Positions 28,028-52,539 of a stretch of 64,000 bases of DNA are shown one piece after another. The translations under genes were made by a program, and so were the position numbers. Numbering within the stretch: position 1 is the first letter of the stretch; each line of letters starts with the position of its first letter. The notes beneath the pieces were generated by a model. It did not search any database and had not been told where the DNA came from. It was given only the letters and a program-made list of their open reading frames with translations. Source of the DNA: Candidatus Woesearchaeota archaeon (lineage in GTDB: Archaea; Nanobdellota; Nanobdellia; Woesearchaeales; 0-14-0-80-44-23); assembly GCA_038874135.1 (NCBI GenBank), contig JAVZCZ010000001.1, positions 256,001 to 320,000 on the forward strand. The letters run 5' to 3'.

Positions 28028-29224
28028 TCATGTCAGCTTTTTAAAAAAAAGTAGCGGAGCCATAAGCTTGTGAATGTGAGCGTTCATTTCAATGTTATCG
28101 CATTCTTTTTTACATCCTGAACGGGCATGTGGATCATTTCCAATGTATTTAAAGAAATTTCCTTCTTTTTTATATTTAAATGTTTTTTTTCTAAAAAAGT
28201 TTTGCTTTTCTCCATACCATATGTCTTTAAAATTCTCTTTAAAAATATTTCCTGAAGGAATTCTATGAGCTTTTAAACAGGGTATAACATTACCATTAGC
28301 CATTATTCTGGCAAAAGTCCAGCCTGCGTAACAAGGCATTGAATCTACCACGATATTATCATAACTGGTATATTTTATCATGTTTTGCAAACGAATTTTT
28401 AACAGTTCAATATTTTTAACTTTTGTTTTGCTTTGATAAGTTGTTTCCAATTGATTAGTTAATAAGTCTAACTCTGAAATTTCTTTTAAAAGAACTTTAG
28501 CTTGTTTTTTGCTAATCTGCAAAAAAGAAGTTTTTTTAGGTATAATATCTACAGGAGTAAAATCAACTGAATCGGCACCAACTTCAAAAGCAAATTTTAT
28601 CATTTCATTAAATTCATGAGCATTAACATTCATAAGAACATTATGTATATTTACAAAAGGCTTACTAACATGGTTTACTTTTTTTATTTCATTTAAAAAT
28701 TTAAGATTTTCTTTTAACTTAAAAAAAGTATTAGGTTCACTACCCAAGTGAGTTTTGTTATAAGTTTCAGCAGTAGCTGCCCATATACTAATATTCATTT
28801 CGTCAACACCAAGTCCGACCAGTTCTCTTAACATTTTCTTACTTAAGAGAGTAAAATTAGTGCTCATTGCACATCTCATTCCATACTTTTTTATTAGTTT
28901 TATAACTTGCATGCTATTAGAATGCATAAATGGCTCTCCACCACCTGTCAGATATACTTCTCTGACGCCCAACTCATTAAATTCTTTAACAAGCTCTTCT
29001 ATTTTTTTAAAAGGTATCTCTTGTTTAATTTCCTCAGGAGACATTGCTAAATCTTTTAAAAAGGGGGAGCGACACCAGCAGGCAATACATCGGTTATTAC
29101 ATTTATTAGTCAAGTCAATTTGCACAATAAGAGGGCCTGTGATTGATCTGCCTGCTAGAACACCTAATCCGATAAGAAAGTAATGTTTTAAACTTTTTAT
29201 TTTTCTTACAAGTTCCAATTTCAC
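28028..29224 (-). CDS. Radical SAM protein with SPASM/Twitch-type C-terminus (paralog 3)
   Basis: CNNRCIACW, GGGEPF, PCYAGW...NGNVIPC...CKKECDN. Confidence 0.9.
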   Translation of the reverse strand: MKLELVRKIKSLKHYFLIGLGVLAGRSITGPLIVQIDLTNKCNNRCIACWCRSPFLKDLAMSPEEIKQEIPFKKIEELVKEFNELGVREVYLTGGGEPFMHSNSMQVIKLIKKYGMRCAMSTNFTLLSKKMLRELVGLGVDEMNISIWAATAETYNKTHLGSEPNTFFKLKENLKFLNEIKKVNHVSKPFVNIHNVLMNVNAHEFNEMIKFAFEVGADSVDFTPVDIIPKKTSFLQISKKQAKVLLKEISELDLLTNQLETTYQSKTKVKNIELLKIRLQNMIKYTSYDNIVVDSMPCYAGWTFARIMANGNVIPCLKAHRIPSGNIFKENFKDIWYGEKQNFFRKKTFKYKKEGNFFKYIGNDPHARSGCKKECDNIEMNAHIHKLMAPLLFFKKLT

Positions 29225-29237
29225 ACCTTTCTAATTT

Positions 29238-30488
29238 TTAGATTATTTTTTTCATAATCTTATCAAATAAATTAAGAGAATTAAGCATGTCTTCGGTATC
29301 TTGATTTAATGCAATGTTATCACATGTTTTAAAACAATTTGTTGTTAGGAAGAAAGAATCTTTTGTTTTATCATTTTTGTATCGACGTCTTATGTCAGCA
29401 AGTTTAGCATTATTCCATATCTCTTTAAAGCTCTGTTTGTAAATATTGCCCAAAACTTCATCAGATTTAAGACAAAAGTTAACATCACCATTAGCAAGTA
29501 TTCTGCTATATGTCCATCCTGCATAACAAGGAATATTGTTAATTACCTCGCACTCATATTCACCCTTTCCTGCATTTTTGCTTAACATTCTGGTTATAAA
29601 TCTATCATAATCAAGTATAAAAAGGTTAGATTTTGAAAGATTGGTTTCATCTTCATCAATTATCTGCTTTGCTTTTTTTATTTTTTGTATTACTTCTTTT
29701 CTTTGTTTTTCGTTTAATATGAGAAATTCTGTTTTGCCAGAGATTGGATCAACTGGAACAAACTGCACTGAATCAGCTTCTACTTCTAGTCCAAGTCGGG
29801 CCATGTCTTCTATTTCAGTATAGTTCCAGCTCGTTATTACATTGTAAAGATTTACGTGTGGCGTATGCCGAATTCTCTTAATACTAGCTAAGTATTTTAA
29901 ATTATCTTTGATTTGAAGAAAAGTTGAAACATTTTTATTAGGATGCATCTTTACATACATTTCAGGTGATGCGGCCCAAAGACTTACGTTGATTTGATCA
30001 AAATTAATGGATACAAGTTCGTCTATCATTTCTTTATTTAATAGAGTAAAGTTGGTATTTATGTCACATTCAAAACCAAGTTTTTTTGCATATTTCAGAA
30101 TTTGCATTATTTCAGGATGAAGAAAAGGTTCTCCTCCCCCACCAAAATATAATTTACGGGTTCCTAATGAGTGCAATTCACGCATAACCTTTTTTATTAT
30201 ATCAAAAGATAATTCTTGTTTTTTCCATTCGCGCAAATCTTTTGAATCTTCTAAATAGGGTGAACCAACCCAGCAGGCGATGCAATTATTATTACACTTA
30301 TTAGTTATGTTAATTTGCACTAGTGTTGGACCGGTGAATGTTTTATAGACTGAATCTATCCCTTTTGCAATTCTAAGATTATGAAAGTAATATTTTAAAC
30401 CTCTTATAATGTCACTTCTTTTATATTCTAAGTAATCTAAGTGTGTGCGAAAGTGTACAGGAAGTTTTTTTCTTCGCCTTATTAGCAT
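29238..30488 (-). CDS. Radical SAM protein with SPASM/Twitch-type C-terminus (paralog 2)
   Basis: CNNNCIACW, GGGEPF, PCYAGW...NGDVNFC...CFKTCDN. Confidence 0.9.
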   Translation of the reverse strand: MLIRRRKKLPVHFRTHLDYLEYKRSDIIRGLKYYFHNLRIAKGIDSVYKTFTGPTLVQINITNKCNNNCIACWVGSPYLEDSKDLREWKKQELSFDIIKKVMRELHSLGTRKLYFGGGGEPFLHPEIMQILKYAKKLGFECDINTNFTLLNKEMIDELVSINFDQINVSLWAASPEMYVKMHPNKNVSTFLQIKDNLKYLASIKRIRHTPHVNLYNVITSWNYTEIEDMARLGLEVEADSVQFVPVDPISGKTEFLILNEKQRKEVIQKIKKAKQIIDEDETNLSKSNLFILDYDRFITRMLSKNAGKGEYECEVINNIPCYAGWTYSRILANGDVNFCLKSDEVLGNIYKQSFKEIWNNAKLADIRRRYKNDKTKDSFFLTTNCFKTCDNIALNQDTEDMLNSLNLFDKIMKKII

Positions 30489-30498
30489 AGTTTTCGCC

Positions 30499-31749
30499 TT
30501 ATTGAGTATTATTTTTAGTAAATTTTTTCCTCAGCTTTAGATATAATGCGGCACTTTTAAGTAAAAACCTTTGAGATTTAGTTAGTGACTTAACACGCTG
30601 ATGCATAGGTTCGTTCTGCCAGAGATTGTCACAAGTTTTTATACACTGAAATGGTACAAAGTAAGGATCTGTGAGTGGAAGGTGTGTTCCTTTATATCGG
30701 AATTCTTTTTGTAATTTATCTTCCCAGATTTGTTTGAATCTTTTTGAATATACATTACCCATGGGTTTTAAATAACCCTTGCAGCACGGCACTACATTTC
30801 CATTTGCCATAACTCTGGAAAACATCCATCCTGCATAACAAGGAATATGCTTTATAACAGATTCATCGTATATTCCTTTATCTGCTTTTTCACTTTTTAT
30901 TCTGCGTTCAAATTCTTCAAGAGCGACAACTTGTAGGGGATACTCTCTTTTTGGACTAGAAATTGTCTGAGTAGCAGGGTCTATTCTTTTTTTAAGCTCT
31001 TCTATTTCTTTGAGTAAGAAATTTCTCTCCTCATCTTTTAAAAGAAGAACGTCAGTTCTACCTTCTACAGGATCCATTGCTACGAACTGAACAGCTTCAC
31101 TTCCAGTTTCAAAAGCTAGTTCAACCATCTCATTAATTTCGTGGTAATTCTTATCAAATATTACGTTATAAAGTTTTATTGTTGGCTTTACCTTTCCAGT
31201 CTCTTTTTTATAATTATTAATAAATTTAAGAACTTTTACTATACGAGAAAAAGTTTCACCAGTTTGATTGGCATGTGTAGCTGCGTAAGTTTGAGGCGTG
31301 GCTGCCCACACACTTACAGTCATAAGGTCAACATTCCAATCTACTAATTTTCTAGCAATTTCTTCTGTTACTAAAGTAAAATTTGTATTAATGTCAAGTG
31401 CAAATCCTTTTTTTGTAGCATATTCTATGAGCTCCAAGGCATTTGGATGCATGAATGGTTCTCCACCGCCAACATATTTGAGCTGTCTAGTTCCCATAGA
31501 GTAGGCATCATCTAGAATTCCTTTAACAATTTCTGTAGGTAAAGTTTTTACTTGCTCTTCAGGAGTCATAAATTTATCTCTAAGCAGTGGAGAACGACAC
31601 CAGCACGCCAAACATTGATTGTTGCACATATTAGTTAAATCTATATGCAACATCTCTGGACCTTTGAATGCTTCTTTTCCATCTAACACTCCAACTAAGT
31701 CTAAATTATTTCTTATAAAGTTAGATAGTTTACTTATACTAACTTTCAT
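30499..31749 (-). CDS. Radical SAM protein with SPASM/Twitch-type C-terminus (paralog 1)
   Basis: CNNQCLACW, GGGEPF, PCYAGW...NGNVVPCC...CIKTCDN. Confidence 0.9.
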   Translation of the reverse strand: MKVSISKLSNFIRNNLDLVGVLDGKEAFKGPEMLHIDLTNMCNNQCLACWCRSPLLRDKFMTPEEQVKTLPTEIVKGILDDAYSMGTRQLKYVGGGEPFMHPNALELIEYATKKGFALDINTNFTLVTEEIARKLVDWNVDLMTVSVWAATPQTYAATHANQTGETFSRIVKVLKFINNYKKETGKVKPTIKLYNVIFDKNYHEINEMVELAFETGSEAVQFVAMDPVEGRTDVLLLKDEERNFLLKEIEELKKRIDPATQTISSPKREYPLQVVALEEFERRIKSEKADKGIYDESVIKHIPCYAGWMFSRVMANGNVVPCCKGYLKPMGNVYSKRFKQIWEDKLQKEFRYKGTHLPLTDPYFVPFQCIKTCDNLWQNEPMHQRVKSLTKSQRFLLKSAALYLKLRKKFTKNNTQ

Positions 31750-35668: not shown

Positions 35669-37639
35669 ATGCATAAATCTAAATGCCAGATTATGAGCAG
35701 AGTAATATTTTTTTCGCACAAAAAGATTTTTGAAAACGGGAATAATTCTGCTTCAGACATTAGATTTTTAGAAATGGCAAAAGTTCTTGTTCAAAATAAT
35801 CATAAAGTAACGATTGCTGAAAAATTAAGAGAAAACGAAGAAGTCTTACTTGGAATAAGATTTGTTGGATGGAAAAATGTGCTTAGTTCTGACCTTTCAA
35901 AAGAGTATGATGTTGCAATAGTGCCAATTTGGACTACTGAGAAAGAAGTTCTAGACAGAATAAAAAATATAGCGATTGTAGTAGACGCGTATGCTCCAAT
36001 AGTTTTAGAGCAATCGAGTAGATATGCAAATAAAACGCCTAGTAGAAGAGAAGTTTCTGATTTTGTAAATTATGTTCTAACCAAATCCAATGTTTTATTA
36101 TCAATGGCTGATTTTATTATGTGTGCTGGAGATAGACAAAAATTGTACTATACAGGAATATTAAGCGCCCTTGGAAGGATCAACCCGTTTTCATATGAAG
36201 AAAAGCTTATTGAATCAGTTCCATCAGGAGTTCATCTCAAAAGACCAGTTAATAAAAAAGAAGTATTTAAGAAAATAATTGGTGAAAATAAAAGAATAGT
36301 TTTGTGGCCCTCTACAATATTTCCTTGGTTTGATGCAGAAACTGCAATAAGAGCAATGAAGATAGTTGCAGAGGAAGAAAAAGAAGCGGTACTGGTATTC
36401 TTAGGCGCAACTGGTTTACCGAAAGACAGTTTAGGATATGAGGAAGCTGAGGAAGCGAAAAAACTTGCTGAAAAAGAAGGAATTTTGAATAAAAATGTTT
36501 TCTTTATAGAAAGAATTCCGTATCAAGATGTGGAATCTGCTTATTTAGAGTCGGAGATAGCATTAATAACTTATCCGCCCGGATTTGAAACAGAGTTCGC
36601 ATTTAGAACTAGAACTATTCATTGTATGTGGGCGGGTTTGCCGGTTATCTGCTCTGAAGGTGATGAACTGGCTGAGATCATAAAAAGAGAAGGGCTCGGC
36701 GTAGTGGTTAAGCCTAAAGACCCTGAAGTACTTGCGAATTCAATAATAAGATTATTGAAAAATGAACAACTAAGAGCTGAAATTGCAAAGAATGGACAAG
36801 AATATGTGTTTAAGAATTTTAGTTGGGAAAAAGTGTGTAAGCCATTAGAAGATTTTTGCAGTAAGCCCCGGATTAGTGAGTCAAAAAACTTTTTGACACC
36901 CTATGCAATAATAGATGAAAAGAATAGATTAATATGGCAGTTAGAGGAACATCTTGAGGACTATAAATCAAAAGATGAAAAATCAAAACAAATAATACTG
37001 AAGAACGAGATGGAGATAGAAAAAGAGCAAAGAATAATTGAAGAGCAAAGTAAAGAAATAAAAAGAATAAGCAGAAAATCTGAGCAAGTTATAAATGAGT
37101 TAAATAAAGAGATCAAGAATAGAGTTAAACACATAGAAAGTTTAGAAATAACAATACAACAACAAAACCAAACAATCAAAAACCTAGAAAAAGAAATACA
37201 AAACAAAGAACAAACAATACAACAACAAAACCAAACAATCAAAAACCTAGAAAAAGAAATACAAAACAAAGAACAAACAATACAACAACAAAACCAAACA
37301 ATCAAAAACCTAGAAAAAGAAATACAAAACAAAGAACAAACAATACAACAACAAAACCAAACAATCAAAAACCTAGAAAAAGAAATACAAAACAAAGAAC
37401 AAACAATACAACAACAAAACCAAACAATCAAAAACCTAGAAAAAGAAATACAAAACAAAGAACAAACAATACAACAACAAAACCAAACAATCAAAAACCT
37501 AGAAAAAGAAATACAAAACAAAGAACAAACAATACAACAACAAAAAGAAAAACTAGATGAGATATTAAACTCGCGATGGTATAAGTTCGCTTCTAAAATT
37601 GATTCATTAAGCAAGAAATTAGGAATCATTAAAAAATAA
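35669..37639 (+). CDS. GT4 glycosyltransferase with long C-terminal repeat coiled coil
   Basis: FETEFAFRTR...WAGLPVI, FSWE; then (TIQQQNQTIKNLEKEIQNKEQ)x6 and amphipathic ILNSRWYKFASKI. Confidence 0.85.
   Translation: MHKSKCQIMSRVIFFSHKKIFENGNNSASDIRFLEMAKVLVQNNHKVTIAEKLRENEEVLLGIRFVGWKNVLSSDLSKEYDVAIVPIWTTEKEVLDRIKNIAIVVDAYAPIVLEQSSRYANKTPSRREVSDFVNYVLTKSNVLLSMADFIMCAGDRQKLYYTGILSALGRINPFSYEEKLIESVPSGVHLKRPVNKKEVFKKIIGENKRIVLWPSTIFPWFDAETAIRAMKIVAEEEKEAVLVFLGATGLPKDSLGYEEAEEAKKLAEKEGILNKNVFFIERIPYQDVESAYLESEIALITYPPGFETEFAFRTRTIHCMWAGLPVICSEGDELAEIIKREGLGVVVKPKDPEVLANSIIRLLKNEQLRAEIAKNGQEYVFKNFSWEKVCKPLEDFCSKPRISESKNFLTPYAIIDEKNRLIWQLEEHLEDYKSKDEKSKQIILKNEMEIEKEQRIIEEQSKEIKRISRKSEQVINELNKEIKNRVKHIESLEITIQQQNQTIKNLEKEIQNKEQTIQQQNQTIKNLEKEIQNKEQTIQQQNQTIKNLEKEIQNKEQTIQQQNQTIKNLEKEIQNKEQTIQQQNQTIKNLEKEIQNKEQTIQQQNQTIKNLEKEIQNKEQTIQQQKEKLDEILNSRWYKFASKIDSLSKKLGIIKK
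37151..37545 (+). repeat. Perfect 63-bp tandem repeat, 6 full copies plus 17 nt, in frame
   Basis: Unit acaatacaacaacaaaaccaaacaatcaaaaacctagaaaaagaaatacaaaacaaagaacaa, read directly. Confidence 0.95.
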
Positions 37640-41206: not shown

Positions 41207-41920
41207 TCACTTTTTAATATATATCTTTACATTCCCAATCTGGTAAAGTGTGCTGTTTGCTATAAAATCTTGAAATAGTTTTTTGCCATTACACTCAAGA
41301 GGGTATTGGGGCATGACTATAAGAAGACGCGGATTCCATGAATTAAGTTCAGCATCATGATTGACTGAGGAAGAGAACATAGGGTCACCTTCATAGCATA
41401 CAAATCTGATAAAGTTGAATGGCTCACGATTGGAGAGTAAGTAAATCTCTCCATTCCAACCATAAACTAAGATTCTATCTGTTGAGTTGGTATGCTCTTT
41501 TATAAAACTGATCACTCTAGTCTGTTCTTCTGCTCCCGAAAAATCGCTGTATGGGAAGTGAAATATCTTATAATTGATGTTATAATCAGGATATTGTTTA
41601 GAAGCGAAGAAAAATGTTGTAAACGATGTGATTAGAAGTAATATTACAAGTACTGATTTTTTATATCCATTCTTTGATTGAATTAAAAACTTCAATCCCC
41701 GTGCAGAGTAAAAGGCTATTGGTGGAAGTACAATTATAAAGTAGTGCCCGAATGAAGGAGGAATAAAACAGATTAACAAACCAAACAGTAACCAAGATAA
41801 AAACAAAAAATTTATTTGTTTAGAATCTTTGCCATTCTGTATGAGAGATAAAATTCCTAAAAGGGATAAGAACAAAAAACATAAAGATTCAAGGATTATC
41901 ATAAAATAACCTTCTGCTAT
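41207..41920 (-). pseudogene. 5'-truncated paralog of the membrane GT at 45877..47361
   Basis: Shares IPPSFGHYF, QYPxxNINxK, DF...Q...F..H; in-frame IAEGYF upstream of ATG 41902 matches paralog LIEGFF, then TAA at 41921-41923; about 260 N-terminal aa missing. Confidence 0.65.
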
Positions 41921-41940
41921 TTATTTAGAAAAATTTTTAT

Positions 41941-43461
41941 ATGAACACCTTCTTTTTTAGTATAATGAAAATTTTGCTCATAAACCCGCTTTTTTATTTT
42001 AATGGACATCTGTTTAAAAAGAATTACAAAGAGATTAATCTGGGATTATTATACTTAGCATCTGTTGCGCAAAAAGAAGGTTTTTCTGTTAAAATAATAG
42101 CTTTAAATAAACTAGAGACTGAGCGCATAATAAAAAGAGAAAAACCAGACATTGTTGGAATAAGTTGTATGATAGGACAACAACGGGCCGGTCTTACTAT
42201 TGCAAAAAAGGTTAAAAAAGTCAATAAGAAGATTATCGTGATAGTGGGAGGGTATTATCCTACTTTCAGGTATAAAAAGATTTTGGAACAAATACCTGAA
42301 GTAGATGTAGTAGTGATAGGTGAAGGTGAAGAATCTTTTAGTGAACTATTAAGATTAATAAATCAGAAAAAGTTTAATTATAACAATCTAAAAAAGATTA
42401 AAGGGATTGCATTTAAAGAGAATAAAAAAATTGTTTTTACAGGAAATCGCGAATTACCGAATTTAGATAAATTGCCTTGGCCTAGTAGGACGCTTTGGAG
42501 AACAGTTAATTTCTTTGCTTCTCGAGGGTGTAGATTTCGATGTAGGTACTGTTCAATAACCAAATTTTATAGAAAAGTTGAAAGGTTTAGATCAGTAAAA
42601 AATGTTATAGAAGAATTAAAGTGGTTAGAAAAGTTGGGGGAAAAAGATGTTAGTATTAATGACGATAATTTCTTAGATAATTTGGATTGGTTTTATAAAT
42701 TTAGGATATTTTATGTAAAGCAAAGATTAAAGATAAGGAGTGGGATAATGAGTAAACTATTAAATGTTTTAAGATTAAAAAAACTTAGGTATCTAAAGGA
42801 GTGTAATATTAATGAAATCAGTATAGGTTTGCAAGGGATAGGAGATGAAGAAAATAAATTTTTTAGAACTGGACACACACTTAAATTATTAGAAGAATTT
42901 AATAAAAAACTAATAAGAGAAAACGTTGAATTTGATGCTATTAGTATATTTCTAATAATTAATAGTGGTGTCAAGCATGAGAACGAGGAATCAATTTTTA
43001 ATAAGGTAAAGAGAGTAGTAGATCTTTTACCTGAAGGGGCTATCCCTAAGAAAAATAAGCTTGCATTGTACCCGGGAACAGATATTGCTGAATATTTCAT
43101 AAAAAAGGGATACTACACAGAGAGTGAAAGCGTATTTAAAGATGATGACTATTTTAATTATTCTTATGCAGACCTCAATGAAAGAAAACTTACTGACTTG
43201 ATAGCTACTGTTGATCAACTATATGAAGAAAGAGCAAAAAGAGAAAGATGGAAAAAGATACCAAAGAGAATAAGTGCAAATTTTCTTAGTACGGTGAATG
43301 CTTACTTGATTATGCTAATGCGCTCTTCTATGAGTTTATGGTTGAAGATCCGTATACTTATGTTCATAATATATATAGTTATTAAAGAGTTTGTTTCGTT
43401 CAGAAATCCAATTAAAAATGATTATAAATTGGGAAGAATGATCAAAATTAAATATTTCTGA
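41941..43461 (+). CDS. Cobalamin-binding radical SAM protein (putative methyltransferase)
   Basis: LGLLYLAS, DIVGIS, IVGGYYPT, GEGE, ASRGCRFRCRYC, DDNF, YPGT; likely start MKILLINP. Confidence 0.88.
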   Translation: MNTFFFSIMKILLINPLFYFNGHLFKKNYKEINLGLLYLASVAQKEGFSVKIIALNKLETERIIKREKPDIVGISCMIGQQRAGLTIAKKVKKVNKKIIVIVGGYYPTFRYKKILEQIPEVDVVVIGEGEESFSELLRLINQKKFNYNNLKKIKGIAFKENKKIVFTGNRELPNLDKLPWPSRTLWRTVNFFASRGCRFRCRYCSITKFYRKVERFRSVKNVIEELKWLEKLGEKDVSINDDNFLDNLDWFYKFRIFYVKQRLKIRSGIMSKLLNVLRLKKLRYLKECNINEISIGLQGIGDEENKFFRTGHTLKLLEEFNKKLIRENVEFDAISIFLIINSGVKHENEESIFNKVKRVVDLLPEGAIPKKNKLALYPGTDIAEYFIKKGYYTESESVFKDDDYFNYSYADLNERKLTDLIATVDQLYEERAKRERWKKIPKRISANFLSTVNAYLIMLMRSSMSLWLKIRILMFIIYIVIKEFVSFRNPIKNDYKLGRMIKIKYF

Positions 43462-43497
43462 AGAAGGGTTAGATGGGACTTGGACTTTAAATAAGTG

Positions 43498-43608
43498 CTA
43501 TCCCAAACTGCTACTACCGGTAACGTGATAATTACACGAGCTAGTTATAGTATCAGTCATTGCAATCTTTCTAAGAGTGGGCTTTTTCCATACAATCTTG
43601 CGTTTCAT
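43498..43608 (-). CDS. Putative RiPP precursor peptide (36 aa), absent from the ORF track
   Basis: Manual translation MKRKIVWKKPTLRKIAMTDTITSSCNYHVTGSSSLG*; WxxPxL leader motif, Ser/Thr/Cys-rich core, co-oriented downstream of the PqqD-rSAM-kinase genes. Confidence 0.8.
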   Translation of the reverse strand: MKRKIVWKKPTLRKIAMTDTITSSCNYHVTGSSSLG

Positions 43609-43630
43609 TTTATAAAAAATAATTATTGTT

Positions 43631-43648
43631 TATTTATAAACTTTTCGC
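43631..43648 (-). promoter_or_regulatory. BRE/TATA promoter of the precursor ORF
   Basis: Minus strand GCGAAAAG-TTTATAAATA ending 22 nt before ATG 43608, typical leaderless spacing. Confidence 0.65.
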
Positions 43649-43703
43649 AATAGCTTGGTTTAAACTTTTATGCTATTTTTAAACATGAAGATAAGCTAAC
43701 CTT

Positions 43704-44555
43704 TTAAAGATTTGATGAATTGTTTGTAACAAAATTTGTTACGAAGGATACGACAGAATTGTCTTTTTTGAATTTAAGAGTATACGCTTTAACTGAGTTA
43801 ACACACGACATCACCAATTTTATGAATTTGGCCTTTGATTCAAAGCTGTAAGGTATTATTGAATTTTTTAATAAATTATTCAAAAAACTATTTATTCTTA
43901 TATCTTGTATACTATTATGATTAGATTTTTTAATGAAGAATATATATGCGAGTTCTCCTTTTTTATTAGAAAAAGATTTCGCACTGCTCTGTGCAGGAGT
44001 TCCATAACAGTAAAATTTTCCATTTTTTTTAATGATTATATTAAGTTCGTCGCTAAAACAATTAAATCCTGATTTTTTAAACAGTTTACATAGAGTACTT
44101 TTTCCTGTTCCGCAGGGACCGACAAATAGAACTACTCTTTTGCGATTGTGCAAATCAAACATAACTCCGGAGGAATGAACTAAAAAGCTATTTTTTTTCG
44201 TCAAATACATCGCCAGTATTCTTTTATTAAAAATGTTTTCAATATCTGTCTTATTAGAAAAGAAGCTAACTTTATTTTTTTCCTTTATTACGCCCCACTC
44301 GCCAGTTTTAGGTTTTATAATTAACTTAGAATTATATTCTAAAAATTTAACTGCAAAGTCTCTGCTCACAAGTTTAGATCCTGGAGGGACACAAAAATAT
44401 CTATAATTCTTCATTAAGAAGGTATAATCCTCTTTTTTATTAGTTCTAAATTGAGCAAATCTATTTAAGTTAAGATTTTTTTCAGAAACTACCTTAACTA
44501 CTACTGGACCTATTTTTATTTTAAATTTTTTCATATAAATCACAGTTAATAACAA
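43704..44555 (-). CDS. HPr-kinase-related P-loop protein (ScmC/HprK-related type)
   Basis: LVHSSGV, LFVGPCGTGKSTL, FSDELNII, YGTP; likely start MKKFK at 44534. Confidence 0.75.
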   Translation of the reverse strand: MLLTVIYMKKFKIKIGPVVVKVVSEKNLNLNRFAQFRTNKKEDYTFLMKNYRYFCVPPGSKLVSRDFAVKFLEYNSKLIIKPKTGEWGVIKEKNKVSFFSNKTDIENIFNKRILAMYLTKKNSFLVHSSGVMFDLHNRKRVVLFVGPCGTGKSTLCKLFKKSGFNCFSDELNIIIKKNGKFYCYGTPAQSSAKSFSNKKGELAYIFFIKKSNHNSIQDIRINSFLNNLLKNSIIPYSFESKAKFIKLVMSCVNSVKAYTLKFKKDNSVVSFVTNFVTNNSSNL

Positions 44556-45547
44556 TTGTTAAAAAAGAGTTTAGCAAGTTTACACAAGCGTGGAATCTTT
44601 GCTGAGTTAGATGATTTTGGATCGAAGGATTTGATTTCTTGTTCTGCAAAGCCAGGACACCAAAAACATATATTACGGTATTTACAACTAGCACACTTTT
44701 TGAATTTCTTTATGTAACTTTGTCTAATGTATTTTAAAGTTTTAAAAGCAATTCTCAGATTCGGAAGAGCTTTTACTCTTTTTTTTCTTAAGAGGAAGCA
44801 GAGCCCCATATTTCCTTTTGAATCAATATGAAAAGAGCGGATACCTGCACTGCAATTAAAAACTTCAGCTGAATGTTTTAATACTTTTAAGTTTATTTTG
44901 TATCTATTACAAAACAAATCAAAAAGATCGTGTGTTGATAAACTAACCTTTCTAGCATTTTTTCCGATGATAATTGGATTAAACTCTATCCTTTTTTTTG
45001 TAAAGTTCAAACTAAGATTATCAAGTTTTTTAAAGTATTTCTTTAACTGATAAAGAGGAAGCGTTCTGAGTTCTAGATTAAATTTCTTTAAGGATTTAAG
45101 ATTATTTAGTACAGTAGTGTATGCTGCTTTTCCAGTTATTTTTCTATACGTAATGTTATCGACTCCGTACAATGTGATTCTTATAAGCATAGGAGGTTTT
45201 TTCTTAAAAGTATCTAATATTTTTTTTGTAACAAAAGACCCATTTGAGTTTATAGTTATTCTATTACCAAACAGGGTGTACGCATAATTATAAATTTCTA
45301 AAAAGTTTGGATGAAGTAGAGGTTCTCCTCCTGTTAGAATTATATTTGTAACACCGAGTCGATAGGCCTGTTTAAGAATCTTTTTAAATTTGATCACGGG
45401 TAATTCTGAGCTAGTAGCTTGTTTAATATTCTTAAAATAGCAATGTTTACATTTGAAGTTGCATTTCTGTGTTATTTCCAAATGAAGAAGATTAGGGGGA
45501 AATTCCTGATTTAAGATAGTTTCAGATTCTTTATCGTAGCTGTACAT
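44546..45547 (-). CDS. Radical SAM/SPASM peptide maturase (PqqE/ScmE-like)
   Basis: CNFKCKHCY, TGGEPLLH, CSAGIRSFHIDSKGNMGLC, CASCKYRNICFWCPG...LC. Confidence 0.88.
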   Translation of the reverse strand: MYSYDKESETILNQEFPPNLLHLEITQKCNFKCKHCYFKNIKQATSSELPVIKFKKILKQAYRLGVTNIILTGGEPLLHPNFLEIYNYAYTLFGNRITINSNGSFVTKKILDTFKKKPPMLIRITLYGVDNITYRKITGKAAYTTVLNNLKSLKKFNLELRTLPLYQLKKYFKKLDNLSLNFTKKRIEFNPIIIGKNARKVSLSTHDLFDLFCNRYKINLKVLKHSAEVFNCSAGIRSFHIDSKGNMGLCFLLRKKRVKALPNLRIAFKTLKYIRQSYIKKFKKCASCKYRNICFWCPGFAEQEIKSFDPKSSNSAKIPRLCKLAKLFFNNCY

Positions 45548-45548
45548 T

Positions 45549-45821
45549 TTAGGATTTTATTAAGATTTTTAAAGACAGTGCTTTTTTAATAAAGTTCATA
45601 AAATCTTTATCTAATTTACTTGCACTAATATCAAATTTCCGGCTTAGAATTTTTTTAGTTTTAGAAATCCCATTTTTTACAACACCTTTTAATATGATCG
45701 ATGCAGTTTTATTTAAGATAAAGTAATTAGGAGAATTTTTTCTAGTTAGTATCAGAAAGTACTGATTATTATTAACTGAATAGAATCTGGCTTTTCCATT
45801 AAAAAAATATTTTTTTGACAT
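45549..45821 (-). CDS. PqqD-family RiPP recognition element (RRE)
   Basis: 90 aa; YFILNKTASIIL...LSRKFDISASKLDKDFMNFIKKALSLKIL matches the LNxT/A...F/Y-D-V...D..F...L pattern; adjacent to the rSAM gene. Confidence 0.8.
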   Translation of the reverse strand: MSKKYFFNGKARFYSVNNNQYFLILTRKNSPNYFILNKTASIILKGVVKNGISKTKKILSRKFDISASKLDKDFMNFIKKALSLKILIKS

Positions 45822-45876
45822 AATTAATATTAAAAAGGCAGTAAGCTTTTTAAATATTGCTATTTTAATTTTTAAA

Positions 45877-47361
45877 GTGAATAAGATAAATAATACAAAA
45901 GAAAGAATTGATAAAGAACTAGTTTTTCTAATAATCTTATCAATTTTTTTAAGATTTATATGGCTATATGCTGCTATAGAACGAGATGAAGGAATTTTTG
46001 GTTATAGTGCATTTAAACTATCGATTAATGAATTAAAAATTGTGGATAATAAAATTCCTATTGTTTATATCATCTATTTATTAATAATGATTATACACAA
46101 ATTACTTTCCTTTAATTTTCCTGTAATTATTAGTGTACGAATTGTTAATAACCTCCTATTCCTAATAGCAGTAGTTTGCTTATATAGGTTTTTTTCAGAG
46201 GAAAAAAGAGAAATTGCCTTTTTTTCTACTATCTTTTTCATAATATTCATGAATCTTCCTGTTTTTGAAGGACAACTTGCTATGACTGAATCATTGGGAA
46301 TGAATTTTTTTGTGTTAGGATTAATATATATGCTTAGATATGCTAAACATTATGAACCTGCTTATTTTAGAATATCATTTTTTTTCTTTTTACTGGCCGC
46401 TTTATTAAAGTACCCTTTTTTGTTCCTTTCAGTTCATACGATTATATTTTTTATAAAAAACAGAACAGGTTTTAAAAAAGTTGCTCTTTTTTTAATTACT
46501 TATTTTATAACAGCGATTCTGATGCTTGGTTTCTATTTTATTGCATTTCCTGAAAATGTTTTATTTTTTATTATTGAAAGTATAAACGTATTAAATGAGG
46601 TCCCTGAAATTTACAGTTTTAGTAGTCTTAAGTTAGTTCTTATCGAGGGTTTCTTTTTTATAATTTTAGTTGTTTTAGGTGTTTTAGAGTATTATAAAGT
46701 AGAGAAAAAGGAGAAAATTTTTTATTTGTTTAAGAATATGTTGCTTATCTCATTGGTACTCTCATTGATTCCTCCTTCGTTTGGTCATTATTTTCTGATA
46801 AATTCAATAGCTGTAGCATTTTTTGCTGGAGTTGGAATACTATCCTTAAAAAGGTTTAGCATTAAATTAGTGAAGTATATCATAATTGTAATTCTTTTCC
46901 TTGCAATTATAATCTCAGTTTATTTTTCAATGTTACAATATCCTAATCTTAACATTAATTTTAAAGGAATTAACGTAGTATATAATGATTTCTTAGATTT
47001 GAAACAGCAGTTAGAAGTTTCAAAATTTTTAGAAAATCATATTAAACAAAACGAGAGCTTTGCCATGTGTGGTTTTGATGGAACTTTAGGTTGGCTGTCA
47101 GAACGGCGTATTTTTTCTGGAGTTAGAAAATTTTGTTATATTCCAAACGGAAAAGAAAATGAAAATAAAGTTTTAAAAATATTAAAAGATAGATACCTTT
47201 CAAGAATTATAATTTATGATGTAGCTAAAATTTTAAGTTGCGAACTACCAGATAATATTAAATATCTGGTTCTATTTACTAATGCATATGATGAAACTTT
47301 GTTTAAATGTACTGGTAAGATTGAGATGAAATATGATAATTTATTGATTTGCAAATGTTAA
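45877..47361 (+). CDS. GT-C (ArnT/GT39-like) membrane glycosyltransferase
   Basis: ERDEG after TM1, DNKIP, AMTE, multi-TM, FGHYF. Confidence 0.8.
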   Translation: MNKINNTKERIDKELVFLIILSIFLRFIWLYAAIERDEGIFGYSAFKLSINELKIVDNKIPIVYIIYLLIMIIHKLLSFNFPVIISVRIVNNLLFLIAVVCLYRFFSEEKREIAFFSTIFFIIFMNLPVFEGQLAMTESLGMNFFVLGLIYMLRYAKHYEPAYFRISFFFFLLAALLKYPFLFLSVHTIIFFIKNRTGFKKVALFLITYFITAILMLGFYFIAFPENVLFFIIESINVLNEVPEIYSFSSLKLVLIEGFFFIILVVLGVLEYYKVEKKEKIFYLFKNMLLISLVLSLIPPSFGHYFLINSIAVAFFAGVGILSLKRFSIKLVKYIIIVILFLAIIISVYFSMLQYPNLNINFKGINVVYNDFLDLKQQLEVSKFLENHIKQNESFAMCGFDGTLGWLSERRIFSGVRKFCYIPNGKENENKVLKILKDRYLSRIIIYDVAKILSCELPDNIKYLVLFTNAYDETLFKCTGKIEMKYDNLLICKC

Positions 47362-48515
47362 GTGACAAAATGATAGTAAAGAATTACAGACGGCTAAGAT
47401 TCATCATTGTGTTACTTTTTATTGAAATGATTATCATATTAATGTGGTTATCACATTATGAGATTGAGAGATATCAACAGCAACAGATTAATAAGTTGAA
47501 TGAAAAGATTGAAAAATTACTCGAGTATTCAAAGCATTTAAATAACAACTGTACAGTTATTGTTTATGAAGATAACAGTTTAATATGTGAAAAAACTGCT
47601 GGGCCATACACAATTTATGATTACATAAAATTATACGAATTCACAGGAGAACTGGATTTTTTTAATACTGCTAAAAGATTAAGTGCTTGCTTGGAAAATT
47701 CAAATTTTTCATATATTAAAGATAGATGTGATTTAAATCTGTGGGATGGCAAAAATTATAAAATTGCCTGGATGTTTTCTGAATATTATTATTATAATCA
47801 TTTGAACAAATCGGCAGGAGACATTTATAAAAAAATGTTAGAAGATTTAAAAATGAATATTTCTAATAACCAGAATATATCTGAAAATTTAATATTAACC
47901 CAGTTTAAAATAAGGGAGCTTAGAGCATTAGAACAACAAGCCATTAATAAATGTATTATAAACAAAGAATGCAATATAACCGAGGAATATAAAAAGATAA
48001 TTCAAGCATATCTAGAGATTGAAAGTATTTCTGAAACAAATTTTTTTTACATAAACCCTCAATGGTTACAAGGAGCATGTTCTGCATTAAAAGGATTTAA
48101 AATGTATGGAGACCCTAAAAATTTTGAAACAAATATTATAATAAAAGAAATTGAAATTAGAGTATTTCACAGAATCAGTAGACTTTTAAGTGATCAAAGA
48201 ATAGAAGGATATTTTAATGAAAAATTTTTTTCAAAAAAAGATGATGTAGATAGTACAATCTATACATACAAAGCAGTATTAGCGTTAGACGCCTGTCTTG
48301 ATGCAAAATTAGCACCTTACAGCTTAAATGCAATAATTAATCAAAGTATAAAAAAAGGTTTAATCTATTTACTAAATCAACAGGATGAAAAAGGAGGAAT
48401 AATTGAAAGATATAAAGTTCCACATAAAACAGAAAGTTTAAACGATGAGATCCTTGTACTCGCTATAAAATATTTTGGTCTTCCCTACAAAAAAATAAAT
48501 GAAAAAATCAAGTAA
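47349..48515 (+). CDS. Membrane-anchored helical-repeat (alpha/alpha toroid-like) hypothetical protein
   Basis: N-terminal TM; LYEFTGELDFFNTAKR and KKGLIYLLNQQDEKGG resemble toroid/QW-type repeats. Confidence 0.55.
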   Translation: MQMLSDKMIVKNYRRLRFIIVLLFIEMIIILMWLSHYEIERYQQQQINKLNEKIEKLLEYSKHLNNNCTVIVYEDNSLICEKTAGPYTIYDYIKLYEFTGELDFFNTAKRLSACLENSNFSYIKDRCDLNLWDGKNYKIAWMFSEYYYYNHLNKSAGDIYKKMLEDLKMNISNNQNISENLILTQFKIRELRALEQQAINKCIINKECNITEEYKKIIQAYLEIESISETNFFYINPQWLQGACSALKGFKMYGDPKNFETNIIIKEIEIRVFHRISRLLSDQRIEGYFNEKFFSKKDDVDSTIYTYKAVLALDACLDAKLAPYSLNAIINQSIKKGLIYLLNQQDEKGGIIERYKVPHKTESLNDEILVLAIKYFGLPYKKINEKIK

Positions 48516-48591
48516 GTAGATTAGAATGATTTTAGATAACAATTTAAATATGAAAAATATTTTATAATCCATACCTAAAAGAGGAAAATTT

Positions 48592-50397
48592 ATGAAATTT
48601 AAAAGATCTCCAAAAGTATATCAAAATTATAAGTGTGACAATCCTAAGAATACAATAAGAAAAATTGATAGTGGCTTTAGAAGAGTTGGTCTTGCGGTAG
48701 TGTACAGATGTAAAGAAATTAAATTAAAAAATTTAAATTATTTCACGGGTAGTGTGAGGCTTCCTTACTTAAATCTTACAAGTAATGGGAAAGGCTGGAA
48801 TTATTATTTAAGCAAAGCCAGTGCATGTGGAGAAGCTGTTGAACGATTTTCAGCTGAGATGCATTCTCCTGCATCTTATCTATTTATGAAGAGTATTATA
48901 AAAAATTTCTGGGCAGATGATATTAAATATTATTCTTCTTTTTATTTTAAATCTTTTACAAAAAATAAAGGGAATAGTAATAAAGCAAGTTATACAAATG
49001 ATAAAGTCACTAATAATTGGTTGAGAGAAATTAAAAAACAGATGAACAGTGTGAGAAGGAATAGTAAAAATGTTTATGCATTCTCTCTAATTCATAAAAA
49101 ATATATAAGAATTCCTGCAACAAAGGTTAAATTATTATCATTTTCGAATGGGCTAGCTGCTGGCAATACCCTAGAAGAAGCAATTGTTCAGGGAGCTAAT
49201 GAAATTTTTGAAAGATATATTTTAGCAAGAGTTATTAATAATAAAAAGAAGATATGGCCAACGATTGATAAAACCAGTATAAAAAGTAAGAGGATAATTA
49301 ATTTTATTAAGTTATTTGAAAGTAACAATTTTGACATAATTTTAAAAGATTTTTCATTGAATGGCGAATTTCCCTGTTATGGTGTATTATTTGTTAATAA
49401 CAATTTAAAGAATACAAAAAATAAAATAAAAAAAAGGTATTTTTTTAGAAGAGTAAGAATTGCATCAGATTTTAATCCTGAGATTGCTATTCTAAGATGC
49501 TTTATGGAAGAATTACAAGGTAAAGATTTAAAAGATCTAAAAAAACATAAATATTTAGACTCAATTTGGGAGTTGGGCCTAAAGGAAAATTTAAAGTTTG
49601 TATTCAATACGGATCTATCAAACTTAAGATATTACCATTATCCTAAGAGTTTAAGACATCTAGAAGAAGGTAAAATAGAAAAGTTTGACCATTTAAAAAA
49701 TAAGAAATTTAGTGATTTCTATGATGAACTAGAAGAAATTAAAAAAATAATAGAAAAACAGAAAAGAGATATCTTAATTATCGATTATACCCATCCGAAA
49801 ATAAGGTTTCCTGTTGTGCGAGTAATAATTCCAGGCATGTCAGATATGGTAAATTTGTTTTCATCAATTAGACTAACAAAAGCATCAGATGAAGAGATAT
49901 ATTCTCTAATGTATCCTTATTTTAAGTATATGAAAAGATTTATTTTAAATAATATGTGGGTCAAATCACAAGAAGGAGTTAAAGAGTTTGTTGAAGCGCT
50001 CAGATCATATATTTCAAATTATCCGCTTATGGAAGAGATTCCAACTCCGGTTTTCCCATTAAAAGAAAATTCAGTTTATATGCTAATGCTATTTTCCTAT
50101 TTGCGAATAAGAAAGTATGAATCAGCTCTTAATTATCTAAAAACAATAATAAAAATTTATCCAAAAAACAAAAAACTTTTTGATAAACTGTACCGATATT
50201 TAAAAAGTGTAAAAAAAGATAATATAAACTATGAGAGAATTAAAGTAATGGTTAAAGATCTACCATTTCAGGAAAAAGTTATACTTTTAGAACCACATAG
50301 AAACCCATTAGACCCAAATTTTTTCCTAAGTAAAGAAAATGAATTTTTTACTAAATTAGTTTTGATTAGAGCAATGAAATCTTTTGAGGGGTCATAA
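48592..50397 (+). CDS. YcaO-family protein with helical (TPR-like) C-terminal extension
   Basis: NGKG...ASACGEAVERF, SNGLAAGNTLEEAIVQGANEIFER, RCFMEELQG, PVVRVIIPGM. Confidence 0.9.
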   Translation: MKFKRSPKVYQNYKCDNPKNTIRKIDSGFRRVGLAVVYRCKEIKLKNLNYFTGSVRLPYLNLTSNGKGWNYYLSKASACGEAVERFSAEMHSPASYLFMKSIIKNFWADDIKYYSSFYFKSFTKNKGNSNKASYTNDKVTNNWLREIKKQMNSVRRNSKNVYAFSLIHKKYIRIPATKVKLLSFSNGLAAGNTLEEAIVQGANEIFERYILARVINNKKKIWPTIDKTSIKSKRIINFIKLFESNNFDIILKDFSLNGEFPCYGVLFVNNNLKNTKNKIKKRYFFRRVRIASDFNPEIAILRCFMEELQGKDLKDLKKHKYLDSIWELGLKENLKFVFNTDLSNLRYYHYPKSLRHLEEGKIEKFDHLKNKKFSDFYDELEEIKKIIEKQKRDILIIDYTHPKIRFPVVRVIIPGMSDMVNLFSSIRLTKASDEEIYSLMYPYFKYMKRFILNNMWVKSQEGVKEFVEALRSYISNYPLMEEIPTPVFPLKENSVYMLMLFSYLRIRKYESALNYLKTIIKIYPKNKKLFDKLYRYLKSVKKDNINYERIKVMVKDLPFQEKVILLEPHRNPLDPNFFLSKENEFFTKLVLIRAMKSFEGS

Positions 50398-50474
50398 AAA
50401 GGGAATGGCTGAATTAGAGATAAATAAAGCAAAGATTACCAGAAAGACCTGTGAACTAAAAATGCATGAAATTT

Positions 50475-50538: not shown

Positions 50539-51141
50539 ATGGTTGAAATAAAGGCTTTTAACAGGTGGAGCACGCAGGGCATCGTAGTTAGTGATCCTGG
50601 CTTGAAGGATTATATTACTCTTGAGCCCAAGATTGCTCCTAGGAGTAACGGCACATATGCTGGAAACAAGTTTTACAAGTCTAAGATTTTTATTGTTGAG
50701 CGCCTTATGAATAAGCTGATGGTTGCTGGGCATAGGGCTAAGAAGCACACTTTTACTTCTTCCCTGCTTACTGGGAAGAGCCAGAGCGCTTACAAGCTTA
50801 CTGAGAGAGCTTTAGAGATTATTGAGCAGAAGACCAAGAAGAATCCCATTCAGGTTTTGGTTACTGCTATTGAGAACGCTGCTCCCCGTGAGGGCATAGT
50901 TTCTATAGAGTATGGAGGTGCCAGGTATCCTAAGGCAGTGGATGTGAGTCCTCAGCGCAGGATTGACTTAGCGCTTAGGCTTATGGTGCAGGGTGCTTAT
51001 GCTAAGACTTTTAACAATCCTAAGAAGAAGTTTGAGGAGATGCTTGCTGCTGAGATAATAGACGCTTATAATCTCAGTCCGAACTCAAATGCGATATCTA
51101 AGAAGCTTATGACTGAGAGGCAGGCTGAAGCTTCAAGGTAA
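50539..51141 (+). CDS. rps7: 30S ribosomal protein S7 (archaeal type)
   Basis: FNRWS...DPGLKDYI, IVERLMNKLM, NPIQVLVTAIENAAPRE, AVDVSPQRRIDLALR, ERQAEASR. Confidence 0.97.
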   Translation: MVEIKAFNRWSTQGIVVSDPGLKDYITLEPKIAPRSNGTYAGNKFYKSKIFIVERLMNKLMVAGHRAKKHTFTSSLLTGKSQSAYKLTERALEIIEQKTKKNPIQVLVTAIENAAPREGIVSIEYGGARYPKAVDVSPQRRIDLALRLMVQGAYAKTFNNPKKKFEEMLAAEIIDAYNLSPNSNAISKKLMTERQAEASR

Positions 51142-52125: not shown

Positions 52126-52539
52126 ATGAATGGGTTTGAGATTTTTTTAGTAAAAGGTAAGAGTATGCGTCCCTTATTAAGAGAGGGTGATAGTTGTATT
52201 GTTGTGAAAGATAAGAATTATGGTCTTTTTGATGTGGTGGCATTTCGGAGGAAAGGAAAGGTTATTATTCACAGAATTGTAAAATTTCGCAGGGACGGCA
52301 GGGTTACTACTCACGGGGATAATTCAGCAAGTTTTTTTAGAGCACTTGCCTCTTTTGAAGTTATTAGAAGGAAGGATATTATTGGGAGAGTTGTCTGCAT
52401 TGTAAGGTCTAGAAGGAAGGTTGAAGGGTTTCGTTTGAAGCTTCTTTCGTTTTTCTCACTTGTTTTGGGAATTTTTAGGATGCTTCCGTTTCTTTTTAAA
52501 AGGTATGTTTTTGGCTTTAAGCCTCGTAAGGCTCTTTAA
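52126..52539 (+). CDS. S24/S26-family peptidase lacking an N-terminal anchor
   Basis: VKGKSMRPLLREGD, IIHRIV, HGDN, IIGRV. Confidence 0.85.
   Translation: MNGFEIFLVKGKSMRPLLREGDSCIVVKDKNYGLFDVVAFRRKGKVIIHRIVKFRRDGRVTTHGDNSASFFRALASFEVIRRKDIIGRVVCIVRSRRKVEGFRLKLLSFFSLVLGIFRMLPFLFKRYVFGFKPRKAL

Follow-up and report, generated by a model that had tools for sequence, protein, structure and literature searches.

The closest described relative of the locus reported here is the linear polyphosphorylated peptide (LPP) pathway of Paenibacillus alginolyticus, lppA-K-B-S-D-N (Popov et al. 2026, PMC13381572), in which a SpI-type peptidase, a recognition element (RRE) for peptides that are synthesized ribosomally and modified post-translationally (RiPPs), an HprK kinase, a nucleoside triphosphate (NTP) transferase and an MsbA exporter are encoded together, in capsule loci. 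In LPPs, Ser3 is the residue that the kinase phosphorylates, and the peptidase needs the RRE to cut after Thr-1; LPPs were described as restricted to Bacillota, their final product was not found, and the paper names neither radical SAM nor YcaO enzymes (PMC13381572). Paeninodin clusters also sit in capsule loci (PMC13381572), and in pseudomycoidin the addition of a hexose to the phosphate requires PsmN (PMC6993621), which is related to the PF14907 nucleotidyltransferase (NTase) family. Here we analysed a stretch of 64,000 nucleotides (the window; contig JAVZCZ010000001.1, positions 256,001 to 320,000) from a Candidatus Woesearchaeota archaeon, in which an RRE, a radical SAM enzyme with a SPASM-type C-terminus, an HprK-like kinase and a 36-aa peptide adjoin one another. 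The reading that we favour, and hold to be reasonably probable, is that this locus encodes a phosphopeptide pathway of the LPP/paeninodin type, in an archaeal variant with a radical SAM enzyme added.

The host genome (G000; other G numbers denote related genomes and L numbers fetched gene neighbourhoods or contigs) is a single 910-kb contig, 99% complete and of hot-spring metagenome origin. An earlier note on this DNA had proposed a probable DPANN host, which fits, the uS7 cluster of a close relative being named Ca. Woesearchaeota; the six open reading frames (ORFs) it had listed are all found at their positions and strands (Table 1), and its view of the three-gene core and peptide as a RiPP system holds, given that an RRE fold is present and that peptide ORFs also occur in homologous cassettes. 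The RRE, SPASM and kinase genes form one minus-strand run, as had been described, with gaps of 1 nt between RRE and SPASM enzyme and 11 nt between SPASM enzyme and kinase; the latter gap is counted to the ATG at 44534, the likely start of the 276-aa kinase in place of the TTG at 44555. The 90-aa RRE scores only E 0.002 against the PqqD model PF05402, below the cut-off, and its structure model (pLDDT 87) nevertheless matches TbiB1, FusB1 and PqqD best (TM 0.7-0.86), so that its identification as an RRE, with a fold like that of lasso-peptide RREs, stands; by their spacing, N37 and D73 would fit the conserved leader-binding Asn/Asp of LppB. The assignment of the HPr-like kinase is borne out as well: it scores best with TIGR04352 HprK_rel_A (E 1e-6), its His120, Walker A Lys145 and Asp162 are invariant in all close homologues, and its model (pLDDT 90) matches the PEPCK and HPr kinase folds. 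A search of the PDB with the kinase sequence profile returned P-loop matches only, and it was the fold search that settled the kinase fold.

Table 1. Features of the locus, with positions in the window and the basis of each assignment
Feature	Position	Strand	Basis
Precursor peptide, 36 aa	43498..43608	-	ORF, leader motif, comparison with 9 homologous peptides
Stand-alone RRE, PqqD fold, 90 aa	45549..45821	-	Weak PqqD match and structure model
HprK-like peptide kinase, 276 aa, LppK/PadeK/PsmK/ScmC type	43704..44534	-	TIGR04352, residues, fold
Radical SAM enzyme, 333 aa, SPASM-type C-terminus with 7 Cys, no fused RRE	44546..45547	-	PF04055, Cys pattern
S24/S26 (SipW-type) peptidase, no N-terminal anchor, probable leader peptidase	52126..52539	+	PF00717, TIGR02228
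BRE/TATA-like element	43633..43648	-	Read from sequence, 25-40 nt upstream of peptide ATG
Strain-variable block	41624..50471		X2 contig join, depth, GC3
B12-binding radical SAM enzyme, probable methyltransferase	41965..43461	+	PF02310 and PF04055
YcaO protein, C-terminal TPR-like extension	48592..50397	+	PF02624, E 1e-43
PMT_2-type (GT-C) membrane glycosyltransferase	45877..47361	+	PF13231, E 9e-5
388-aa protein, N-terminal hydrophobic segment, probable alpha/alpha-toroid fold	47349..48515	+	Atlas fold match

The peptide gene follows the kinase gene by 95 nt on the same strand. As the earlier note had seen, its product carries a WxxPxL box (W7, P10, L12), which comes after a basic N-terminus and before a Ser/Thr-rich core with a single Cys (C25); the basic-[YW]xxPx[ILV] pattern is rare, being found in 4 of the 8,840 short ORFs of the genome. 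T22 lies 15 residues after W7, the spacing from Y-16 to T-1 in LppA, and in a leader-anchored comparison a small residue at +15 or +16 proved general among the homologous peptides, and cleavage is accordingly predicted either after T22 or after S23. A Ser or Thr after the leader is kept in all 10 compared peptides, and the precursor has no acidic residue after T22. The promoter-like element upstream suggests that the peptide gene may have its own leaderless transcript, although in such an AT-rich region the element could be there by chance. Cores of only 4-9 residues are found in the precursors of G070, G045 and L117, and the G070 precursor (L038:10355-10432, minus strand; 25 aa, with a core of ~4 residues) adjoins a PaaK-like adenylase and two B12-binding radical SAM enzymes (B12-rSAMs). 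The G110 precursor (L090:10191-10400, minus strand), which adjoins a kinase, an RRE, an NTase and an S26 peptidase, continues its YEKPKL leader with Thr/Ser/Pro/Gly repeats into a mucin-like core.

How far this gene set is conserved was assessed from the kinase. A search of 301 genomes of the same order gave 7 clear homologues, and a profile search over 401 same-order genomes, which scored six candidates per genome and from which weak homologues may escape, added G389 and weaker matches; the kinase matches of G148, G037, G215, G295, G350 and G211 had no RRE, peptide or S26 peptidase nearby and were excluded from the counts. A metagenome search with the kinase found no close relative. The counts cover nine close-kinase genomes (seven families, G000 included), which through their kinship do not represent independent cases. 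A strong PF14907 match is present in all nine, as against 14 of the 401 genomes overall, and an S24/S26 peptidase lies within ~8 kb in eight. A stand-alone RRE and a short basic [YW]xxPx[ILV] peptide are each found at the kinase locus in 7/9 genomes, G000 included, which places a related leader peptide beside the kinase in 6 of the 8 related, Woesearchaeota-like genomes. The genome-wide Pfam PqqD search missed even the RRE of G000, so that apparent absences of the RRE in relatives carry little weight.

The peptidase had escaped the earlier note, as had the surface-glycan island around the locus. It is the third S26 paralogue of the genome, the two others being anchored housekeeping copies encoded elsewhere; its S13, H49 and D65 are invariant across 10 homologues, and its gene lies 6.3 kb from the RRE, beyond the strain-variable block. 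The NTase is encoded still further away, at C1:48300-49343, 250 kb from the cassette. In the same-genus contig L112, which over 5.4 kb shares 96% identity with G001, a genome of this genus, the NTase, kinase, RRE, SPASM enzyme, peptide and S26 peptidase are united to the left of uS7, the position that the cassette has in G000; the assembly of G001 is broken at uS7, which makes the absence of a cassette there uninformative. The L112 NTase is the best match to that of G000 (40%, E 1e-85) and the L112 S26 peptidase, which adjoins the peptide gene, is the best match to the G000 peptidase (45%), so that both G000 genes probably are pathway partners that moved. An S26 peptidase is fused to a PF14907 NTase in G068 (L039:10214-11647, plus strand), which argues for a pathway shared by the two. 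Judged by these sequence comparisons, the conserved system is the RRE, the kinase, the peptide, the S26 peptidase and the PF14907 NTase, without YcaO or B12-rSAM.

The SPASM enzyme stands differently. Its identity is well supported by a PF04055 match (E 2e-22), a CxxxCxxC motif at 29/33/36 and seven SPASM-spaced Cys (232, 250, 285, 288, 294, 297 and 322), although the Pfam SPASM model does not match it and no family cut-off is passed. Its best homologues are bacterial and ~30% identical, and each of the nearest ones sits behind an RRE and a short Cys-bearing YxKP peptide. The enzyme in L112 is PapB-like (177 bits) and 23% identical to that of G000, and several kinase loci carry none; the SPASM enzyme is thus an exchangeable add-on to the module, and not the fixed core member that had been supposed. 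Of the loci that encode a full 7-Cys SPASM enzyme, 4/4 have a core Cys, as against 2/6 of those that do not (p 0.08), and for the product of the G000 enzyme we put forward, at about even confidence, a thioether at Cys25. Two clusters of gut bacteria (L018:4957-9824 and L021:3015-8120, plus strand) encode one or two 34-aa peptides with a terminal Cys together with an RRE, a SPASM enzyme and two ABC transporters; the L018 peptide has no NCBIfam match, and the two represent an apparently unnamed radical SAM RiPP family.

Altogether, these results are consistent with the following sequence of events. The stand-alone RRE would bind the WxxPxL box of the precursor, as its fold and the motif suggest. 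By analogy with LppK and PsmK, the kinase, whose catalytic residues and fold are in place, would move at least one phosphate from ATP to a core Ser or Thr, S23/S24, T30 and S32-S34 being the candidates. The co-translated SPASM enzyme, given its motifs, would abstract a hydrogen atom, and its most likely outcome, to which we give an even chance, would be the Cys25 thioether (-2 Da). With fairly high probability, to judge from its triad and its co-occurrence, the anchorless S26 peptidase would then cut the leader after T22 or S23 with the aid of the RRE, and the released core would measure 13-14 residues, or ~1.3-1.4 kDa, its unmodified monoisotopic mass being calculated as 1397.6 Da for a cut after T22 and 1310.6 Da for one after S23. 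Finally, the displaced PF14907 NTase, an orthologue of the in-cluster copies of close relatives, may, as likely as otherwise, add a sugar to the phosphate in trans in the manner of PsmN. The product is probably tied to the surrounding cell-surface glycan island.

Several observations weigh against this phosphopeptide pathway. The S26 peptidase and the NTase lie outside the strain-variable block, and the peptidase has no counterpart of the N-terminal helix through which LppS, in its model, touches the RRE. A predicted complex of the RRE, the peptide and the peptidase, in which the S26 score fell 0.02 under the mark, speaks neither for nor against the pathway. No MsbA-type exporter is found, the 99%-complete genome containing no PF00664 match. 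The LPP leader consensus YxxPxVLxHQxIxFETxxS is not followed, only the aromatic-xx-P box and the Thr at -1 agreeing, and the LPP phospho-site position +3 is a Cys here, not a Ser. The correlation between SPASM enzyme and core Cys is not significant, and the enzyme may instead form a C-C cross-link (to Y27, H28 or W7) or carry out another SPASM reaction, since it has no homologue above ~30% and passes no cut-off.

The genes between the left PMT fragment and uS7 differ between strains. In a second sample, X2, a contig of depth 35 has different sequence, an estimated ~6.2 kb, between 41623 and 50472, and the block itself, with its sequence unchanged, is present there at a depth of ~5-6, about 1/6 of the major strain. 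The block holds the B12-rSAM, peptide, kinase, SPASM enzyme, RRE, PMT, 388-aa protein and YcaO genes and has a GC content at third codon positions (GC3) of 0.19-0.25, against 0.48 for uS7. Compared with the same-genus cassette, identity is 29% for the kinase and 23% for the radical SAM enzyme, the RRE being not alignable, as against 81% for uS7 and 56% for GT2, a divergence from which we infer that the block was replaced. Its left breakpoint (~41623) falls inside a half PMT gene, for which sample X2 has a diverged allele: the 231-aa ORF at 41207-41902 (minus strand) corresponds to the C-terminal half of a PMT_2 protein paralogous to that of 45877-47361, and its N-terminal half was not found by tblastn in the genome. 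On the right, uS7 (50539-51141, plus strand) stands alone directly after YcaO and is the right edge of the variable island in the family (G002, G003, L112). B12-rSAM and YcaO thus travel with the core block; co-movement is not equal to co-action.

This distinction matters for the model of the earlier note, in which the RRE, SPASM enzyme, kinase, B12-rSAM and YcaO act on one peptide, which besides the phosphate and the cross-link would receive a C-methyl group and, from YcaO, a modified backbone (an azoline at Ser/Thr/Cys, or an amidine). The whole 8.8-kb block would then be a single pathway, whose 14-residue peptide is phosphorylated, thioether-linked, C-methylated, YcaO-modified, cut by S26 and possibly surface-glycosylated. 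The 41.6-50.5 kb block matches the proposed span and holds both extra enzymes, and its genes share the lowest GC3. The B12-rSAM gene (likely start 41965) converges on the peptide gene, as had been noted, with stop codons 36 nt apart (43461), and its product clades (100/100) with enzymes of the same-genus L112, where the orthologue is also near the cassette, and of the YcaO cluster L108. B12-rSAMs are, however, common residents of glycan islands: two others occur in the island of G000, and two close homologues lie in radical-SAM-rich islands without RRE or kinase. That the B12-rSAM acts on the 36-aa peptide is thus possible but less likely than not.

For YcaO, whose gene starts 2.77 kb from the RRE (2.8 kb in the earlier note), the ATP-binding motifs are intact and the nearest homologue (39%) lies behind an RRE-fused CcpM-like radical SAM enzyme and a Cys-rich peptide. 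Another homologue is found in L108 (6239-12386, plus strand), a cluster near bacterial L10/L12 genes that comprises a B12-rSAM from the clade named above, a YcaO of the SagD type, a nitroreductase and a 600-aa YcaO; an ORF there has a signal-like start and a Cys/Gly-rich tail, and L108 is a separate candidate RiPP cluster. Of five YcaO homologue neighbourhoods, two are RiPP-like and three stand-alone, and the G000 locus has no TfuA, PxP C-terminus, dehydrogenase or E1 partner. The closest solved chain is the non-TOMM YcaO of E. coli (4Q84, E 3e-14; TOMM, thiazole/oxazole-modified microcin). YcaO occurs in 11/401 same-order genomes; apart from that of G000, no kinase locus that was retrieved holds one, and of the eight other kinase genomes only G268 encodes it, among ribosomal genes of a different contig (p 0.18). 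Action of YcaO on the 36-aa peptide therefore seems rather unlikely, the model with all five enzymes on one peptide is improbable, and B12-rSAM and YcaO probably act on something else. The RRE and the kinase of the proposed five-enzyme cassette do recur with a peptide, and the caution with which membership of the other two had been stated was right, some evidence existing for both in the shared block and the peptide-linked closest homologues.

Another explanation places the phosphopeptide inside glycan assembly. The cassette sits in a low-GC glycan and sulfate island (window ~11-52 kb), and the peptide might be a primer, cap or carrier for a surface glycan and not a released product, the NTase putting the first sugar-1-phosphate or sugar on phospho-Ser/Thr and the glycosyltransferases, the GT-C protein and the Wzm/Wzt system extending or moving it. 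It would account for the near-coreless precursors (4-9 residues; G070, G045, L117) and for the setting of 8/9 close-kinase loci among GT2, PMT_2, sulfatase and B12-rSAM genes; G000 has no peptide exporter but a Wzm/Wzt-like ABC system lies in the window. The capsule setting and missing final product of LPP and paeninodin clusters (PMC13381572) and the need for PsmN in hexose addition (PMC6993621) agree with it. Glycan islands are, on the other hand, hot spots for variable genes, where co-location can be passive; the NTase of G000 is 250 kb away, and the G110 module lies outside any clear glycan island. We give this explanation a small probability. It is very unlikely, finally, that the locus is a decaying or non-cognate mosaic in which the incoming block has ceased to function together with the resident NTase and S26 peptidase, or in which the substrate is something other than the peptide ORF: the strong divergence of kinase, radical SAM enzyme and RRE relative to uS7 and GT2, the half PMT gene at the left edge and the outlying S26 and NTase genes would suit such a mosaic, but all frames are intact, catalytic residues are kept, the sequence is unchanged in the second sample, a promoter-like element precedes the peptide gene, and the leader pattern of the peptide is conserved.

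Apart from the genes discussed, the island contains, at window positions 11164-41137, CysN/CysD/TauE-like sulfate activation genes, sulfatases, glycosyltransferases, epimerases, the Wzm/Wzt-like ABC system and the two further B12-rSAMs, one of them a 1004-aa double; three further radical SAM enzymes with C-terminal Cys clusters are encoded in tandem at 28028-31749. Radical-SAM-rich glycan islands were found repeatedly across the order, G045 having 33 radical SAM matches. The glycosyltransferase at 35669-37639 (plus strand) ends in a coiled coil built from about six Gln-rich repeats of 21 residues each, which we take to resemble the chain-length rulers of Wzm/Wzt systems. Within the block, the PMT_2 protein has homologues in the kinase loci L038, L040, L047, L088, L091 and L095, with a PF13231 gene in L117; the 388-aa protein resembles GH88 and squalene-cyclase folds in the Atlas (TM ~0.6) and has no Pfam or NCBIfam match and no homologue in the other loci.

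New in this analysis are the comparison within the genus, the displacement of the S26 and NTase genes, the trend that links the SPASM enzyme to a core Cys, and the replacement of the block at the level of strains. The recognition-kinase-peptidase-NTase module of LPPs would thus be present in symbiont-sized archaea and not only in Bacillota, and within surface-glycan islands its cores and its add-on enzymes are exchanged from strain to strain; this replacement hints at a possible role in surface recognition of host, virus or kin. With a 36-mer substrate and four small soluble core enzymes, the system is small enough to bring three questions within reach of experiment: whether one peptide, bound by the RRE, can serve both a SPASM enzyme and an HprK kinase, which group enzymes of the PF14907 family transfer, and whether a partnerless E. 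coli-type YcaO acts on a peptide at all.

Against this background the locus can be compared with known systems. The literature search returned no such enzyme combination, no Woesearchaeota RiPP, nothing of relevance on SynChlorMet and no SPASM maturase paired with a kinase and an S26 peptidase, most subscription journals lying outside the search. The earlier note had known of no characterised system with this combination, which stands for the whole; the core, being the published LPP gene set, does have a characterised relative. Among YcaO systems, thioamitides (YcaO-TfuA) were rejected, the genome having no TfuA partner, as judged by PF07812 matches, and so were azol(in)e-forming TOMMs: TIGR03604 scores 69.5 against 219, the C-terminus is without PxP, the neighbours include no E1-like or dehydrogenase partner (the search for E1/ThiF covering the locus only), and nitroreductases are far away. 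The block YcaO shares ERY and PGMSD motifs and a long C-terminal extension with the E. coli-type YcaO proteins but scores 91 against a cut-off of 700 (NF040716); its place is in a distinct subfamily of 600-aa proteins from anaerobic archaea and bacteria.

Sacti- and ranthipeptide systems (AlbA, PapB, CteB, CcpM) have in common with the locus an RRE-dependent SPASM enzyme and a Cys-bearing substrate, and the radical SAM motif, 7-Cys SPASM pattern, RRE and core Cys are all present; the differences are that no cut-off is reached and that the core has no CxxxD/E acceptor. We know of no maturase of this kind paired with a kinase and an S26 peptidase. The uncharacterised SynChlorMet cassette (TIGR04249 ScmC, TIGR04250 ScmE, TIGR04251 ScmF; Pfam PF27840) likewise joins a PqqD protein, a SPASM radical SAM enzyme and an HPr-like kinase to a YxxP-type peptide, and close homologues of the kinase carry PF27840 ScmC. 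Here there is one SPASM enzyme, not two, and a short core with one Cys, and membership was rejected on ScmC, ScmE and ScmF scores far under the cut-offs (13.6/125, 58/400 and 63/400). Paeninodin and pseudomycoidin share an HprK-family Ser kinase, a discrete B1 RRE with a WxxP leader and a hexose-linked NTP transferase (PMC6993621). A lasso peptide was nonetheless rejected: the locus has no macrolactam cyclase or B2 protease, no B2 match exceeds the cut-off, and the sole Asn_synthase match lies 180 kb away among housekeeping genes; with no Asp/Glu acceptor at core position 7-9, and none in the predicted core, a lasso cannot form.

From LPPs the locus differs in its archaeal host, in the addition of a 7-Cys SPASM enzyme and a core Cys, in its B12-rSAM and YcaO neighbours, in an NTase that is 250 kb away with in-cluster orthologues in close relatives, and in the absence of an MsbA exporter from G000. 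Strict membership fails because the exporter, the leader consensus and the +3 Ser are lacking, and the locus falls outside the published LPP definition. It would work like an LPP system all the same: it has a separate RRE, a kinase of the HprK-like type, a SipW-type Ser-His-Asp peptidase and a genome-borne PF14907-type NTP transferase, its precursor carries a [Y/W]xxPx[L/V] box with a Thr 15 residues after the aromatic residue, it has no lasso cyclase, and it lies in a surface-polysaccharide locus.

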